A stretch of DNA of 64,000 nt from an uncultured Methanomassiliicoccales archaeon. GTDB lineage: Archaea; Thermoplasmatota; Thermoplasmata; Methanomassiliicoccales; UBA472. The position numbers and the translations under genes were made by a program. Positions 1-55,317 of the stretch are shown piece after piece (position 1 is the first letter of the stretch; the number at the start of each line of letters is the position of its first letter). Where the stretch lies: the NCBI GenBank assembly GCA_963695345.1, contig OY968769.1, positions 544,001-608,000 of the forward strand. The letters run 5' to 3'. The notes below the pieces were generated by a model that was not told the DNA's origin, did not search any database, and worked only from the letters and a program-made list of their open reading frames with translations.

Positions 1-1056
1 CCGCCGAGGTCCTGGGTATAGACACCCTGGTCCAGGGCGGTCCTGACGGCCTTGAAGATGACGTCGCCCAGGTCCCTGCGGCCCAGGTTGTCCAGCATCA
101 GCTTGGCGGCCAGTATGGTGGCTATCGGGTTGATCCGGTTCATGCCCTTGTACTTCGGGGCACTGCCATGCACCGGCTCGAACATGGAGATACCGTTGGG
201 GTTGATGTTGCCGCCTGGTGCCAGGCCCAATCCGCCGGTGACCTCGGCGAGCAGGTCGGTGATGATGTCGCCGAACATGTTCGGGGCGGCGATGACCCGG
301 AACTTGTCCGGGTTCTTCACCAGCGCCATGGTCATGGCGTCGACGTACATGTAGCTCAGTTCCACATTGGCCTGCTTGCACTTCTCGGCCCAGACGTCAC
401 GCCACAGGCCGTAGATGTTGCTGCACACGTTCGCCTTGTCGATGACGGTGATCTTCTTCTCACCGATCATCTTGCAGTAGGTCAGATTGAAATCGGCGAA
501 ACGCTCGATGTTCTTGCGGGACATCATCCCGATCTCGAAGGCGAACTCGTCCTTGGCGTCCGCATCGGCCTGGAGCTGCACCCTCATGTCATAGAGGTTC
601 CTCTTGATCTGCAAGTTCAGCTTTCCATGGCCTTCCTGGACCCGGCCGCCGGCTCCGACGTAGTAGTCCTCGGTGTTCTCCCGGAACACGTCGATGTTGA
701 AGTCCATGTCCCGCTTCAGACGGCCGAATGGCTTCCACAGCGGGGCCGGACGGTGGTTGATGAACTGGTCGAACTGGAATCGGAGCGCCAGGAGTATACC
801 TTTCTCCAGGACGCCCGGCTTGACCCGATCGTCGCCGACGGCGCCGAGATAGATGGTGTCGAACTTCTTCAACTGCTCGACGTCCTCGGTGGTGAGCAGC
901 TTGCCCGGTCCGCAGGTATCTCTCGGAGTTGATGTCCATCTCCTGGAAGTCGAACTGCACCGAGTAGTTCTCGGACAGTTTCCGCAGCACCTTCATTCCC
1001 TCGTTCACTACCTCTGGTCCGATGCCATCGCCTGGCAGTACGGCTACTTTGAACAT
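1..1056 (-). CDS. leuB: 3-isopropylmalate dehydrogenase (runs off window edge; frameshift near 915)
   Basis: N-terminus [16 protein letters not shown]; later minus-strand reading gives [10 protein letters not shown] and EPVHGSAP motifs; last gene of the leu cluster. Confidence 0.9.
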
Positions 1057-1544
1057 TTCTTTTCCTCCTTTATCTTGGCCATCAGGCCGCCCTTTTCGAT
1101 CAGGTCCTGCACGAACGGCGGGAATGGATCGAACTTCCACTGTCTGCTTCTGGGTCTCGTTGCTGATCGTCCCGATGATCGAAATCGACCGACAGGATGT
1201 CTCCTTCCTCCGCCTCGATCTTGCATTGGTCACCGGGAGCAGACCCACATTGATGGAGTTTCGGTAGAATATCCTGGCGTAGCTCTCGGCCACGACACAG
1301 GAGATGCCCATCTGCAGCAGCGCCCGGGGGGCGTGCTCACGGCTAGAACCGCTGCCGAAGTTGCGTCCGGCCACGATGACGTCGCCCTTCCTCACCATCT
1401 GTCGCCATGCCCGGCCTTACCTTCTCGAAGGCGAACGTCCCCAGACTTGTCGTTGTTGTCGCTGGTCAGGCGCTCCGCCGGTATTATCTGGTCTGTGTCC
1501 ACGTGATCCCCGAACAGCCAGACCTTGCCTTTGACTTTCTGCAT
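1044..1544 (-). CDS. leuD: 3-isopropylmalate dehydratase small subunit (frameshifted)
   Basis: [21 protein letters not shown]; [13 protein letters not shown]; [16 protein letters not shown]. Confidence 0.9.
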
Positions 1545-1549
1545 ATTGA

Positions 1550-2820
1550 TCACTCATCCTTGACATCTGAGGGCAGGGATATCTTCCCGGTCAGCGCGCT
1601 GGCCGCTACCACGGCCGGTCCGGCGAGATATACCTCGGACTCCTTGTGGCCCATGCGGCCGATGAAGTTGCGGTTGGTGGTGCTGACGCACCTCTCACCC
1701 TTTGCCAGTACTCCCATGTGCCCGCCCAGGCAGGCGGCGCAGGTCGGTCCGGAGACGAATGCGCCGGCGTCCACGAATACCTTCAGCAGTCCCTCTTCCA
1801 TCGCCTGCTTGAACACCTTGACGCTGGCGGGTACGACGATCATGCGTACCCCGGCTTTGACCTTCCTGCCCTTCATTATCTCGGCGGCGATCCTCAGGTC
1901 CTCGATCCTCCCGTTGGTGCATGAGCCCAGGAAGGCCTGGTCGATCGTCCACGTCGACATCCTTGACCAGCCTACCGTTGGAGGGCAGGTGGGGCAGGGC
2001 GACCATCGGTTCCAGTTTCGAAAGGTCATATTCCAGCGTCCGCGAGTATTTGGCCCCGTCGTCGGCGTACACCGCCTTGAAACCTTCCCGGCGGGAAGCC
2101 TTCATGAACGCGATGGTGGCGGCGTCGCAGGGGAATATCCCGGCCTTCCCGCCCGCCTCGATGGCCATGTTGCATATCGTCATGCGGTCCGAGACGCTGA
2201 CCGCGGATATCCCGGAACCTCCGAACTCCAACGTCTTGTAGGTCGCCCCGTCCACCCCGATGTCGGATATGATCTTCAGTATCAGGTCCTTGCCGCCAAC
2301 GTACTGGTTGAAACGACCCTTGAGCAGGATGTGCACCGATTCCGGCACCTTGAACCACAGCCTTGCCGGTGGCGAACACCGCCGCCGCCTCGCTCGAACC
2401 CACCCCGGTGGAGAAGGCGTTCAGCGCCCCGTAGGTGCAGGTGTGGGAATCGGCCCCGACGATCAGGCGGCCGGGGGCGGCGAACCCTTCGTCCACCATC
2501 ACCTGGTGGCATACGCCGCCCCGTCCGACCTCGTAGTAGTTGTCTATCCTCCATTTCTGGGCGAACTCGCGCATCTCCTTGGCCTGCTGGGCCGAGGCGA
2601 TGTCCTTGTTCGGGACGAAGTGGTCCGGGATAAGCACGATCTTTTCCCGCATCGGCTCGCAGCCCAGTCCCTCGAACTCCTGGAAGGCCAGGGGACCGGT
2701 CACGTCGTTGACCATGACGTAGTCCACGTCCGCCTCTACGATCTCGCCCGCGTGGGCGTCCGTCCCGGACTTCAAGGACATTATCTTCTCTGAAATGGTC
2801 TTCGGATCCTTGCCGCTCAT
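1550..2820 (-). CDS. leuC: 3-isopropylmalate dehydratase large subunit (2 frameshifts)
   Basis: [34 protein letters not shown] and [12 protein letters not shown] spread over three ORF fragments. Confidence 0.92.
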
Positions 2821-2833
2821 CTTGTTTCCTCCA

Positions 2834-4439
2834 TCATGCGCCCTTGCGGGCATAAAGCCGGTCTATGGCCTCCATGGTGGCCTCGACCGATGTGAGTACG
2901 ATGTCCGTTCCGATGCTCTTGCCGATGGACATGATACTTCCCTCCCCGTTCATCCTCAGCTTCACGGTCACCTCGCACAGCGAGTCGCTCCCTCCGGTGA
3001 TGGCGCTGAGACGGTACTCGACCAGGGTCAGTTTGTCGCTGACGGCGCTCTTTATGGCGTTCAGCGCGGCGTCCACCGGTCCGATGCCGATGTTGGAGCT
3101 CCTGCGAATGTCCCCGTCGATGTCGATCACGACCGTCGATGTGGGGGTGATGTTCATCCCGGTAAGCACGGTGAACTCCTTGAGCTTTATCTTGTGCTCA
3201 TCCCTCGGCCGGTCTGACCGAGGATGTGCGATGCCAGCGCCACCAGTTCGGCGTCATCCACGTTCTTACCGCTCTCGGCCAGCTTCTTTACCTTGTCTAC
3301 CACCTCGGCGACCTTTTCGTCCGAGATGTCGATGCCGTACTCCTTGAGCTTCTGCTTGATCGAGTGGGCCCCGCTGTGCTTCCCCAGCACTATGGTGCGC
3401 TGCATCCCGACCAGCTCCGGGCTGAACGCCTCGTAGGTGGAAGGGTCCTTGAGCACGCCATGCACATGTATCCCGGACTCGTGGGCGAAGGCGTTGTTCC
3501 CGACTATGGGCTTGTTGTCCGGGACTGGGATGCCAGTGATCCGGGAGACCAGCTTGGACGTGTATCCGATGCGCTTGGTGTCGACGTTCGTCGGAACGTT
3601 GTAGAAGGCCATCAGGCCGAGGACGACCTCCTCCAGGGCGGCGTTGCCCGCCCTTTCCCCCAGTCCGTTTACGCATACGTGCACCTGCCTGGCGCCCTGA
3701 CGCACCGCGGCCAGGGAGTTCGCTACTGCCAGGCCGAAGTCGTCATGGCAATGGATGGCCAGGGGCACCTTGGTGAACTTCATCACCTCGCGACACCAGG
3801 TATTCCATGGCCGACGGGGACATCGTGCCGACGGTGTCCGGCAGGTTGATCTTGTCCACGCCGGCCTCCTGCACGGCGATGTGCATCTGCTTGAGGAAAT
3901 CCAGGTCCGTCCTGGTCCCGTCCTCGCATGACATCTCCACGGTCAGACCGTGGGACTTGGCATACTCGACCGTCTCCACCGCCCTGGCCAGCACCTGCTC
4001 CCGGGTCATCTTGAGCTTGTGCTTCAGGTGGATGTCGGATGTGGCGATGAAGGTGTGCACGTAGTCGAGCCCGCAGTCCAGTACCGAATCGATGTCGGCC
4101 TTGGTAGATCGGGCCAGGCCGCATACCCGAGCGTTCGAGCTTGAGGGCCGCGATCTTCTTTATCGCCTCCCGTTCCCCGGCCGAGGTTATCGGGAATCCT
4201 GCCTCTATGACGTCGACCCCGAGGTCGCTCAGCGCCGAAGCTATCTTCACCTTGTCTTCGATCGAGAGCGCGATGCCCGGGGTCTGTTCTCCGTCCCGGA
4301 GGGTGGTGTCGAAGATCAGGACCTTCTTCGGCAACGAACCGGACAGTGCAAAGCTGTTGAACTGGCTGGTGTATATGCTCTTCCGGTATTCCTTGTTGTC
4401 TTCCGAGTTCTGACTATCGTTCGTTCGAAGGTCGTCCAT
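2834..4439 (-). CDS. leuA: 2-isopropylmalate synthase / citramalate synthase family (frameshifted)
   Basis: [44 protein letters not shown] and C-terminal regulatory domain GIGPVDA; SD GAGGTGG before the ATG. Confidence 0.85.
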
Positions 4440-4481
4440 TATAACCACCTCTGAAGGATTGGGTCGCAGCAATGGGTCGCA

Positions 4482-4526
4482 CTAGAGACGCAAAAGACAG
4501 TAGATACTGTTGTTGATAGCGCTCAT
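4482..4526 (-). CDS. Putative leu leader peptide MSAINNSIYCLLRL (14 aa, amber stop)
   Basis: Read by hand: ATG..TGT CTT TTG CGT CTC TAG; purine-rich AGGTAAGGA upstream; lies between the TATA box and leuA. Confidence 0.6.
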   Translation of the reverse strand: MSAINNSIYCLLRL

Positions 4527-4564
4527 TACTGTTCCTTACCTTTCGGGATAGTCAGTAACCTTCG

Positions 4565-4577
4565 TATTATATATAAT
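4565..4577 (-). promoter_or_regulatory. TATA box of leu operon
   Basis: ATTATATATAATA about 40 nt upstream of the leader ATG. Confidence 0.6.
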
Positions 4578-4681
4578 TCTTGTCGGACAAAAAATGGCAC
4601 CGGATCTAGCGCCCGATGGCACGTACTCTGTCCTCGTACCATATTTGGAAGCGGCGAGGTTCCGGCAATAGGAGGTACGGC

Positions 4682-5311
4682 TCAGACTCCCCGCCTGTCG
4701 CCCCAGATCAGCTTGTGCAGCTGCGGCAGGACCCTCACGTTCAGCTTCTTCTTGAGCACGAAATCGGCGACCGGTTCGAGGTCCAATCCCCCCACCGGTG
4801 TGAAGATGACGGTGCATTCGATCTTGTTGTCCTTCAACATCTTGGCCGCGTACATCATGTCTTCCCGGTTGGCCACGACGAACTTCAGCTGGTCGAGGGG
4901 GGATAGGAGTTCCAGATTGGTCAGGTCCATCTGTTCCGCCATTCCCGACGACGGGCATTTGATGTCCATGCTGATCATCATGTTCATCGAGCAGGGCAGG
5001 TCCTCGAGCGAGATCGAACCGTTCGTCTCCACCGAAACATGATGCCCGGCCTTTAGCAGCTCGTCGATGAGTTTCACCGATTCCTTCTGATACAGAGGTT
5101 CCCCGCCGGTCACGCAGACATGGTGGATCTCGAATTCCTTGACCCTGTCCAGTATTTCGGCTACGGACATCTCATCCCCATCCTTCTTGGAATAGGGGGT
5201 GTCGCACCACGCACATTCGAGATTGCAGCCAGCGGTCCGCACGAATACCGTCGGTGTGCCTATCAGCGTGCCTTCGCCCTGAAGCGAACGGAAAATCTCA
5301 CATATTTTCAT
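4682..5311 (-). CDS. queE: 7-carboxy-7-deazaguanine synthase (radical SAM)
   Basis: EIFRSLQGEG, CNLECAWCDT, TGGEP, ETNG, PQLHK. Confidence 0.92.
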   Translation of the reverse strand: MKICEIFRSLQGEGTLIGTPTVFVRTAGCNLECAWCDTPYSKKDGDEMSVAEILDRVKEFEIHHVCVTGGEPLYQKESVKLIDELLKAGHHVSVETNGSISLEDLPCSMNMMISMDIKCPSSGMAEQMDLTNLELLSPLDQLKFVVANREDMMYAAKMLKDNKIECTVIFTPVGGLDLEPVADFVLKKKLNVRVLPQLHKLIWGDRRGV

Positions 5312-43528: not shown

Positions 43529-45164
43529 CTACGCTTCCTGGCGCCCTTTCCCTTCCTTCGAGGCGGGAAGGAAAAGCTCGTCGTTGCCGGCATAATCGAC
43601 CTTGGCGTCGATGACCGCCAATTCCCTGTTCTTGAGGCAGCGCCTAAGCGTTTCCTTGAGCTCATCCGCCGTTTCCACCCGATAGCCTTTGGCCCCGAAC
43701 GATTCCGCGTACCTGACGAAGTCTGGATTGGAGAAGTCACAGCCGTAGTCCCGGCCGCAGCTCCGTTTCATCTTGACCTTGATGAGCCCGAGGCCGGAGT
43801 CATTGAATATGATCGTGACGAAGTTCGTCCCGAGCCGCTTGGCCGTTTCCAGCTCCGCCGAGGTCATCATGAACCCGGCGTCCCCCACGACCGCCACCAC
43901 GTCCCGTTCCGGACGGCAGAGCTTGGCCGCCAGTGCGCCCGGCACGCCCACCCCCATGGTGATCAGGCCGTTAGGCAGAAGCAGCGTGTTCTCCCGGCGG
44001 ACCGGATAGTTGCGGGCGAACCAGATGAGATGCGCTCCGACGTCGGGAACGACGATGTCCCCCGGACCCATCACCTCCCGGACAGCCTTCACCGCGTTCT
44101 TCGGGTTCATCCCGGCCCCGTCCGGATGGAATGAATTGAGCTCCTCCCACAAACGGTCCCGGATGTCCGAGACCCAGCCATTCTTCGGAACGCCGATCCG
44201 GTAGAGCGACTTCAGCATGTACCTCAGTCCCCCCAGCACCTGGATGTTGACGTTCAGGTTGTGCGCGTATCCGACCGGGGCTTCGCCGATGTAGACGATG
44301 GTCTTCGCCTTCCCGACATTCCAGAACTGAGGCTGGAATTCCGGCGGGTCATATCCGGCCAGCATCACCACGTCCGCCTTTTCGAAAGCGGCCAATGCGG
44401 TATCGTAATTGCGCATCCCGACGGTGTTGAGGGAAAGGGGGTCCTCGAACGACATGATCCCGGAACCCATCCAGGTATGCGCCACCGGGATGTTCCAGGA
44501 CCGGGCGAACGCCTTGAGCTCCTTTCCCGCCTCGGCGCGAACGATACCGTGGCCGGCCAGGATCAATGGCCTCTCTGACCGGCTGAGCACCTCGGCGATC
44601 CGGCTGAGCGCTGACGACTCATGCCTGGTCCGGACGATCGGGCACACCGGAATCGGCTCCTCAGGGCAGTCCTGCCTCATGACGTCCTCGGGAAGCTCCA
44701 GCATCACCGGCCCGGGCCGCTCTCGGCGGGCAGTGTCGAACGCCTTGCGTACCAGCATCGGCACCGTCGCAGGATTTCGTACGCTCAGCGACTCCTTCGT
44801 GACCGGCTTGTATAGGTTGACCAGGTCGACGACCTGCTTCTGCGGCGGGTCCATCCGGCTCTGCCCCGCCTGGCCGCAAAGGGCGATAAGCGGGAGGTTG
44901 CTGAGGATACGCGTCGGCCACCCCGTTGACCATGTTGGTGGCGCCCGGCCCCAGTGTGGACAGGCAGACCCCCGGCTGGTTGGTGAGCCGGGCCTGCACC
45001 CCGGCCATGTAGGCCGCCGAGTTCTCGTGCTTGGTCAGGATGAACTCGATCGGGGAGTCGGCCAAGGCATCCATGGTGTCCATGTTCTCCTCGCCGGGAA
45101 TGCCGAAGACACGCTGGACCCCCTCGTTCTCTAGGCAGCTGACCAACACCCTGGACGCCTTCAT
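43529..45164 (-). CDS. Acetolactate synthase-like TPP enzyme (frameshift near 44905)
   Basis: VFGIPGEEN, STLGPGATN, GDAGFMM..ELETA..ND. Confidence 0.88.
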
Positions 45165-55229: not shown

Positions 55230-55317
55230 GCGAGGGTAGCCAAGCCAGGTCAAAGGCGACAGACTCAAGATCTGTTCCTGCAGAGGTTCGCCGGTTCAAA
55301 TCCGGCCCTTCGCACCA
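55230..55317 (+). tRNA. tRNA-Leu (CAA), encoded CCA end
   Basis: GCGAGGG..CCTTCGC acceptor stem; ACAGA-CTCAAGA-TCTGT anticodon arm; long variable arm; GGTTCAAATCC. Confidence 0.96.

Follow-up and report, generated by a model that had tools for sequence, protein, structure and literature searches.

A leucine-rich upstream ORF between the promoter and leuA

The DNA analysed here (the window) is a stretch of 64,000 nucleotides from an uncultured Methanomassiliicoccales archaeon (GenBank assembly GCA_963695345.1, contig OY968769.1, positions 544,001 to 608,000 of the forward strand). It carries a set of leucine biosynthesis genes, and the subject of this study is the 45-nt upstream open reading frame (uORF) that precedes the first of them, leuA, together with the leader RNA around it. 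All coordinates of the leader and of leuA refer to the minus strand of the window. The leader elements lie in a spacer of 242 nt between leuA and an upstream gene (4682-5311) that matches the QueE families. An earlier note, made from the sequence alone, had described a TATA box, a purine-rich ribosome-binding site, a 14-codon uORF containing CTT TTG CTC, a tandem repeat and the Shine-Dalgarno (SD) sequence of leuA, and all of these elements are present (Table 1). The three Leu codons occupy 4496-4494 (CTT), 4493-4491 (TTG) and 4487-4485 (CTC). The note was also right that the leader in the window lacks a U-tract terminator: no U run longer than 2 occurs in the 22 nt preceding the leuA ATG.

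The open reading frames (ORFs) 3' of the leader match the families of 2-isopropylmalate (IPM) synthase, the IPM isomerase large subunit and IPM dehydrogenase, and LeuD was identified by eye only. The leuA, leuC and leuB frames (window 3-4439, minus strand) are each split over 2-3 frames, and the family scores fall under the curated cut-offs because the frames are broken. The ilvB copies elsewhere in the genome are split as well. As relatives carry intact LeuA and the genome is a single 2.56 Mb contig (rated 85% complete), the breaks were read as assembly indels and not as pseudogene decay; this suggests that the broken leu and ilvB frames are errors of the assembly.

The tandem repeat is specific to the genus, and no such repeat was found in other genera. 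Its first copy belongs to this genus only, and the second extends into the conserved 3' strand of the leader helix described below.

Table 1. Elements of the leuA leader and the start of the leu genes, in order along the minus strand of the window
Feature	Position	Strand	Basis
TATA-like TTATATATAA, promoter of leader and leuA	4576-4567	-	sequence
Purine-rich AAAGGTAAGGAAC (AAAGGUAAGGAAC), ribosome-binding region of the uORF; also 5' strand of the weak outer helix P1	4543-4531	-	sequence, RNAduplex
5' strand of leader helix P2, CAGUAAUG, uORF AUG included	4531-4524	-	RNAduplex, fold, covariation count
Leader uORF, 14 codons, MSAINNSIYCLLRL, with TAG stop (4484-4482); ATG at 4526-4524	4526-4482	-	sequence and conservation
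Candidate regulatory codons CUU UUG (CGU) CUC in the conserved UGUCUUUUGCG motif	4496-4485	-	Leu-run conservation, 55/55 leaders
Tandem TGCGACCCA ... TGCGACCCA, copies at 4481-4473 and 4468-4460	4481-4460	-	sequence
3' strand of P2, CAUUGCUG, the order-wide conserved CUCAUUGCU box	4474-4467	-	alignment, RNAduplex, covariation
3' strand of outer helix P1 (CC..AUC.UUC), ending 1-3 nt before the leuA SD	4463-4453	-	RNAduplex
leuA Shine-Dalgarno sequence, AGAGGTGG (AGAGGUGG)	4452-4445	-	sequence
leuA start codon (ATG 4439-4437) and first 10 codons	4439-4410	-	nearly nucleotide-invariant in 7 species of the genus
leuA, 2-isopropylmalate synthase, frame broken in the assembly	4439-3187	-	family match; relatives intact, ~547 aa

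Conservation of the leader ORF and its leucine codons

The comparison of leuA upstream regions that the earlier note had called for was carried out across the order. With the first 100 LeuA residues as query, 61 genomes of Methanomassiliicoccales were searched and 60 matched, and the upstream DNA of the best leuA locus from each of 55 genomes was compared. An ATG-initiated uORF of 12-21 codons, starting 71-121 nt ahead of the leuA ATG, was present at 55/55 loci, whereas shuffled leaders yielded such a Leu uORF in a mean of only 2.5%. The signals in front of it were also retained. An A/T (TATA) run ended 34-44 nt 5' of the uORF ATG at 54/55 loci, and an SD-like motif was found 4-16 nt 5' of the same ATG at 54/55 loci with a loose motif set and at 45/55 with a strict one.

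All 55 leader peptides contained at least two adjacent Leu codons, and 33 of them contained three consecutive Leu/Ile residues including at least two Leu. The first core Leu was placed at codon 8-12 (median 10), and leucine accounted for 27.5% of all leader residues. In the leaders of families f1-f6, TTG and CTT together made up 157 of 219 Leu codons, compared with 11.7% and 14.5% for these two codons in the long ORFs of the genome. Family f7 (Methanomethylophilaceae-like) spells the Leu run with CTT/CTC/CTA, while f1-f6 use CTT-TTG, so that the Leu codons vary synonymously in distant families. The remaining properties of the uORF were far less constant: the stop codon was TAA at 25 loci, TAG at 18 and TGA at 12, the frame relative to leuA was distributed 29/15/11, and the peptides differed strongly between genera outside the Leu core. 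Because Leu codons, ORF length, stop codon and frame relative to leuA all vary, what is kept is the coding frame through the Leu codons.

At the level of the genus (7 species), the sequence from the TATA box through leuA codon 10 was almost invariant, and the DNA 5' of the TATA box could not be aligned. In 7/7 species (4437-4526; loci L003-L008), uORF and leuA share one frame interrupted by one TAG, and one species has a second in-frame TAG. Methanomassiliicoccales are known for pyrrolysine use; the genome yielded no match to the PylS N-terminal family and, by aragorn, no tRNA with the anticodon CUA, and neither result is decisive. Read-through from the uORF into leuA was rejected, as the relative frame of uORF and leuA varies among the 55 loci.

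Beyond the order, close orthologues of LeuA turned up in just a few other families of a class-wide draw. In the sister lineages f10 and f30 of the same class, a Leu-rich uORF was detected by script in 12/16 loci and by eye in 3 further ones, and one locus was cut by a contig end. Additional f7 loci carried a Leu-rich uORF in 7/7 cases. No Leu leader was visible on unscored inspection of the upstream DNA of 17 leuA loci from other archaea (Bathyarchaeia, Methanobacteriales and others). A covariance model built from 34 leaders (R1) found one copy in this genome and, in the class-wide sample, matched only the two f1 genomes, with 0/16 in f7 and 0/133 among genomes of other families; since R1 also misses divergent f7 and f10 leaders that are visible by eye, these zeros say little about the range. 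The idea of the earlier note that a Leu leader peptide precedes an archaeal leu operon gained support from this survey, as uORF, start signals, TATA distance and Leu core are conserved in the order and in the sister lineages.

Two variations on the leader were observed. The f10/f30 leaders (loci L184, L190-L204) have a longer 5' part, with the TATA box ~70 nt before the uORF and uORFs such as MPHKSNGLLILPLGLLILA. In genus g2 (loci L026, L032-L034, L037, L041 and L046), a run of Ile/Val codons stands before the Leu pair, as in MSIIIIVDGHGLLRA; judged from these codons, the run hints at multivalent branched-chain sensing.

A covarying helix joins the uORF start to the region before the leuA SD

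The start region of the uORF (its SD and AUG) is complementary to the region 3' of the Leu codons, which includes the CUCAUUGCU box. This box follows the stop codon in short uORFs and lies in frame (S-L-L-stop) in long ones. RNAduplex energies of the uORF-start and post-Leu segments gave z < -2 in 41/55 leaders, with a mean z of -2.9 relative to shuffles. A covariation count was then made on an alignment of 34 leaders with the RNAalifold consensus. In the leader helix 75.8% of the alignment cells pair, as against 34-47% after sliding the partners, and the covariation score was 0.241 compared with 0.08-0.13 in controls, a value reached by 0/500 shuffles. Changes on both sides were found at 9/10 pairs of the outer helix (P1) and at 3/7 pairs of the inner helix (P2).

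The last paired base was located a median of 13 nt before the leuA ATG, and it fell within 8-19 nt in 46/55 leaders; therefore, the base of the helix adjoins the leuA SD. Within the leader, one long helix carries the Leu codons near its apex, has the start signals of the uORF buried in it and touches the leuA SD with its base. The uORF with its Leu core, the covarying helix and the position of this helix against the leuA SD are what the comparison shows.

In predicted folds, the leuA SD also pairs with early leuA codons (2-5 or 2-6), forming a third hairpin (P3). By duplex energy, this SD:codon hairpin was no better than shuffles or a control coding segment, and pairing of the leuA SD with leuA codons 2-6 is possible on the folding models. 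A decoy model, in which the SD region of the uORF pairs with early leuA codons, was at chance level and was dropped.

The Leu codons do not pair with the leuA SD

In the earlier note, the Leu-codon segment CGUCUCU was taken as an anti-SD of leuA (AGAGGUG), which a ribosome stalled on the Leu codons would free for initiation. A pairing of 7 bp with two G-U pairs can indeed be drawn in the window. In its logic the scheme matches the actinobacterial LEU element and the mycobacterial poly-Cys short ORFs, and base stems of this kind are described, in the available portions of the two reports, for Actinobacteria (PMC1262725) and mycobacteria (10.1101/834739). The energetic side of the claim failed: the duplex has -5.8 kcal/mol by RNAduplex and z = 0.1 against shuffles, which is chance level. 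Across the 55 leaders, the Leu-segment:SD duplexes had a mean z of +0.34 with 0/55 below -2, and the expected number of base pairs between these segments in full-length ensembles was 0.00 (maximum 0.10). Moreover, the codons that follow the Leu pair differ between genera, and folding with the ribosome footprint masked left the accessibility of the leuA SD unchanged, contrary to the proposed release. With pairing at chance level across the 55 leaders, the Leu-codon anti-SD mechanism was rejected, and we regard it as extremely unlikely.

Val/Ile/Leu-rich leaders precede ilvB in the same genome

A second case was found outside the window. Both tandem copies of acetolactate synthase (ilvB) are preceded by a TATA box and then a leader ORF rich in Val, Ile and Leu (contig C1 near 1589135 and 1587172, minus strand). 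These ORFs begin with GTG 22-23 nt after the TATA box, have 22 codons, and end in a second half of the form ...AVLLLRVDVVLLVL or ...GVLILRVSVVMTVI. The arrangement was present in 29/30 upstream regions of the family, with one more locus dropped at a contig end, and in 9/9 loci of f2-f6 (7 by script, 2 by eye), where the tails read like ...VVIIIS, ...VGIIIR and ...GVVVVLIR. Three f7 loci did not show the arrangement. Since they start 20-24 nt after the TATA box, the ilvB leader ORFs are probably leaderless.

With Leu codons before leuA and Val/Ile/Leu codons before ilvB, the composition of the leaders tracks what the pathway makes. At or just after the stop codon of the ilvB leader, a G+C-rich hairpin begins in which compensatory changes can be seen; MAFFT/RNAalifold gave a consensus for these leaders that was too poor for counting them. 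Masking of a ribosome on the ilvB leaders produced no SD switch, and 2/29 moved each way. A scan of the genome for other uORFs with amino-acid runs, under strict TATA/SD rules, returned 11 candidates, of which only the leuA leader was convincing; the strict rules missed the ilvB leaders because these start with GTG.

The GTG of the ilvB leader is part of a conserved inverted repeat, CGTG-N11-CACG, just 3' of the TATA box (alignment A3, columns 3-21), which might form a small hairpin in the RNA or act as a DNA operator. The window itself contains a third acetolactate-synthase-like gene (43535-45164, minus strand), which is more distant and likewise has a broken frame. No leader ORF was found upstream of it, and it directly follows another coding region.

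Transcription and possible termination

The RNA start is expected at about 4545-4540, as judged from the usual archaeal spacing between TATA box and start site together with the 20-24 nt between TATA box and GTG in the ilvB leaders. Related RNA was found only in peat metatranscriptome assemblies, whose contigs hold small shares of the sampled words. Contigs from four runs, 88-97% alike, cover 4304-4531, from the uORF into leuA, and none covers 4538-4680. This pattern fits an RNA start between the TATA box and the uORF and co-transcription of the leader with leuA. The earlier note had named a start downstream of 4526 as a result that would refute its proposal; the contigs reach 5 nt 5' of the uORF ATG, which is not the refuting outcome.

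In three of the four runs the contigs stop at exactly 4531, the 5' edge of the inner helix, and in one run adapter directly follows. This shared end may mark a genuine or processed 5' terminus of the RNA, or be an artefact of the library.

In Archaea, oligo-U tracts serve as signals for termination. A U run of at least 4 within the 22 nt before the leuA ATG was found in 24/55 leaders, compared with 5/450 background genes, the background being drawn from this genome only. Termination as the output is thus a live alternative in many relatives. Several f10/f30 leaders carry a U4-U6 tract between the leader helix and the leuA SD, in a terminator-like geometry.

Proposed mechanism and its alternatives

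The interpretation of the uORF as a leucine leader peptide, one of a class-level family with a counterpart at ilvB, is strongly supported. We further consider it probable that the 45-nt ORF encodes the leader peptide of a Leu-tRNA-sensing attenuator at the head of the leuA-leuC-leuD-leuB mRNA. From the arrangement of the helix around the uORF we infer a stalling step, a direction of the switch and an output step, as follows. The RNA would start ~15 nt 5' of the uORF, and the first ribosome would load on the nascent leader during transcription and reach the Leu codons at codons 11-14. When charged tRNA-Leu is scarce, the ribosome would stall at these codons and keep open the long-range helix in which the SD/AUG region of the uORF pairs with the CAUUGCU box and the stretch following it, and the open leader would leave leuA ON. 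A ribosome stalled at codon 10-12 would leave, by the size of its footprint, too little free RNA on its two sides for the inner helix to close. When leucine is plentiful, the ribosome would finish the short ORF and leave, and the helix would then close, turning leuA OFF. The closed helix would bury the start of the uORF, so that no further ribosome reloads, and would place a long helix flush against the leuA SD.

For the window, OFF would most likely mean poor initiation at the leuA SD, wedged between the base of the helix and the SD:codon hairpin, and the open 3' strand would serve as a ribosome landing site in the ON state. In relatives with a U4-U6 tract just after the helix, OFF may also mean premature termination. 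Because the sensing ORF sits in, or abuts, a single OFF hairpin that locks its own start, the stalled ribosome itself would be the anti-attenuator.

Several results weigh against an attenuator of this kind. The 55 loci are related, and since kin are not independent, the counts overstate the support. The CUUUUG core is conserved at the nucleotide level in f1-f6 and in the ilvB leaders, so that an RNA or DNA signal is possible instead of codon identity; the strictness beyond codon identity could reflect a choice of minor codons or an added signal to the polymerase. The leader of the window itself does not fold more stably than dinucleotide-shuffled versions (z = 0.10); it also has a weak outer helix and lacks a U tract. 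The case for the leader structure rests on comparison and not on this single sequence. In addition, one covarying helix was detected and no alternative RNA structure that the position of the ribosome would select. The mean unpaired probability of the leuA SD was 0.29 in the free leader and stayed at 0.29 when a ribosome was masked on the Leu codons; a mask on the stop codon gave 0.33. When only the RNA 3' of the stalled ribosome was folded, this probability went from 0.30 to 0.26, with a rise of more than 0.15 in only 1/55 leaders. No mutually exclusive antiterminator or anti-sequestor helix was detected; the 1:4 and SD:codon duplexes did not beat shuffles. Finally, the RNA contigs derive from relatives and cannot fix the transcription start, the end or the level.

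The nucleotide-level conservation of the core is an argument for a uORF that is translated without sensing leucine. Such a uORF would act constitutively, perhaps loading a single ribosome and so coupling translation to transcription, or serving as a spacer, and UUGCUUUUGCG would be a pause or termination signal of RNA polymerase or a protein-binding signal that only happens to spell Leu codons. CUUUUG/AUUUUG is kept in f1-f6, (C/G)UUUUG recurs in the ilvB leaders, and folding revealed no structural switch, all of which would agree with such a role. Against it, f7 and the sister lineages keep their Leu runs with other codons and without the motif, and the enrichment of the ilvB leaders in Val and Ile, the products of their pathway, is hard to explain without codon-specific sensing; we regard this possibility as unlikely. 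The covarying helices and the near invariance of the first 30 nt of leuA within the genus could instead point to an untranslated structured RNA, riboswitch-like or protein-binding, or to a DNA operator, in which the ORF would be incidental. A protein-binding reading was the one preferred for the actinobacterial LEU element in the available part of Seliverstov et al. (PMC1262725). However, ATG, open frame and stop codon are kept in 55/55 leaders despite lengths of 12-21 codons, compared with 2.5% of shuffles, and the SD-like motif is kept with them. Toward its apex the leader shows little conservation beyond the Leu core, and for this reason no ligand pocket is obvious; the leader region also has no Rfam match. 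Furthermore, an untranslated element is hard to reconcile with leaders whose composition follows the pathway product, a hallmark of codon-sensing attenuators. An incidental ORF is accordingly quite improbable.

A role of the peptide itself, either as an arrest peptide (L-L-R/H) that stalls at high free leucine or as a small protein acting in trans, is very unlikely in our judgement. An R or H often follows the Leu core, and in several folds an open leader would let an anti-SD-like 3' strand pair with the leuA SD, so that stalling would switch leuA OFF, in agreement with a leucine-induced arrest. Nevertheless, conservation of the peptides between genera is confined to the Leu core, f7 and f10 lack the R/H, and the ilvB leaders would need three amino acids to be sensed by unrelated peptides.

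Returning to the Leu-tRNA-sensing attenuator, we put at somewhat better than even the chance that Methanomassiliicoccales and sister Thermoplasmata possess a small regulon of leader-peptide attenuators (Leu at leuA and Val/Ile/Leu at ilvB), which would be the first ribosome-mediated amino-acid attenuation in Archaea and would have a non-bacterial architecture. Leader-peptide attenuation is a textbook form of regulation that depends on ribosomes following RNA polymerase and, to our knowledge, has been considered a bacterial speciality. If the proposal is true, the leader would provide a natural reporter for transcription-translation coupling and ribosome stalling in Archaea, explain the control of branched-chain amino-acid synthesis in gut and peat methanogens, and represent a new attenuator design in which the uORF lies within the OFF helix.

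Comparison with known systems

An Rfam release 15 scan of 4300-4800, with E up to 10, returned only an unrelated lncRNA (E = 1.3; 13.9 bits against a gathering score of 50). The classical ribosome-mediated attenuators of bacteria are the leu, ilv, trp and his leaders of E. coli and Salmonella. Like these, the archaeal leader has a short ORF with its own start signals on the same transcript, directly before the first biosynthetic gene, and the codons of the pathway product are enriched, placed at a fixed short distance from the start and drawn preferentially from minor codons. It differs from them in its archaeal promoter, in that no alternative 2:3/3:4 hairpins were found, in the absence of a terminator in the window, and in a main helix that buries the SD and AUG of the leader ORF and abuts the leuA SD with its base. 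On the sensing side, the leader thus has the properties of a bacterial leader-peptide attenuator, and the alternative hairpins of such attenuators are absent from it. Ribosome-mediated attenuators of bacterial amino-acid operons are summarised in the accessible part of one report (10.1101/834739).

The actinobacterial LEU element, as the available text of PMC1262725 presents it, resembles the archaeal leader in having a Leu-run uORF before leuA, a compact structure, a base stem at the leuA ribosome-binding site and no obvious terminator. In the LEU element, according to the same part of that paper (PMC1262725), the Leu codons and the SD make up the base stem, and the authors propose a pseudoknot, whereas in the archaeal leader the Leu codons are located close to the apex and show no pairing with the SD. 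The archaeal leader showed no sequence or Rfam similarity to the LEU element and, lacking the Leu-codon:SD stem that defines this element, does not qualify as one.

Further parallels exist with the leaderless short ORFs of the mycobacterial polycysteine attenuators, the 'ribulon', in what is accessible of 10.1101/834739: nearly all of the leader folds into a single, highly stable duplex, and analogous short ORFs stand before several operons of the same pathway. The output of that system is translational in the same text (10.1101/834739), as is favoured for the leader of the window. The ilvB leader ORFs, being probably leaderless, resemble these mycobacterial short ORFs (10.1101/834739, available part), whereas the leuA leader ORF of the archaeon has its own SD. 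In comparison with translational attenuation of the ermC type, the proposed signal for stalling is the supply of charged tRNA and not an antibiotic, and the four-segment alternative pairing was not found.

A literature search found no paper that reports an archaeal amino-acid attenuator in its title or the opening of its abstract; most subscription journals lay outside its reach, and an earlier mention is possible. That uORFs regulate genes in archaea too is a passing remark in the available part of one methods paper.

LeuA extension and tRNA-Leu(CAA)

LeuA of the leader-bearing lineages has a poorly conserved N-terminal extension of ~31-52 residues ahead of the catalytic domain, and its first codons belong to the conserved RNA region. 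The extension is seemingly missing in most of the other archaeal loci inspected, where candidate starts lie close to the conserved domain. In addition, a gene for tRNA-Leu(CAA), which reads UUG, a codon preferred in the leaders, was located by aragorn on the genome and lies in the window at 55230-55317 on the plus strand.

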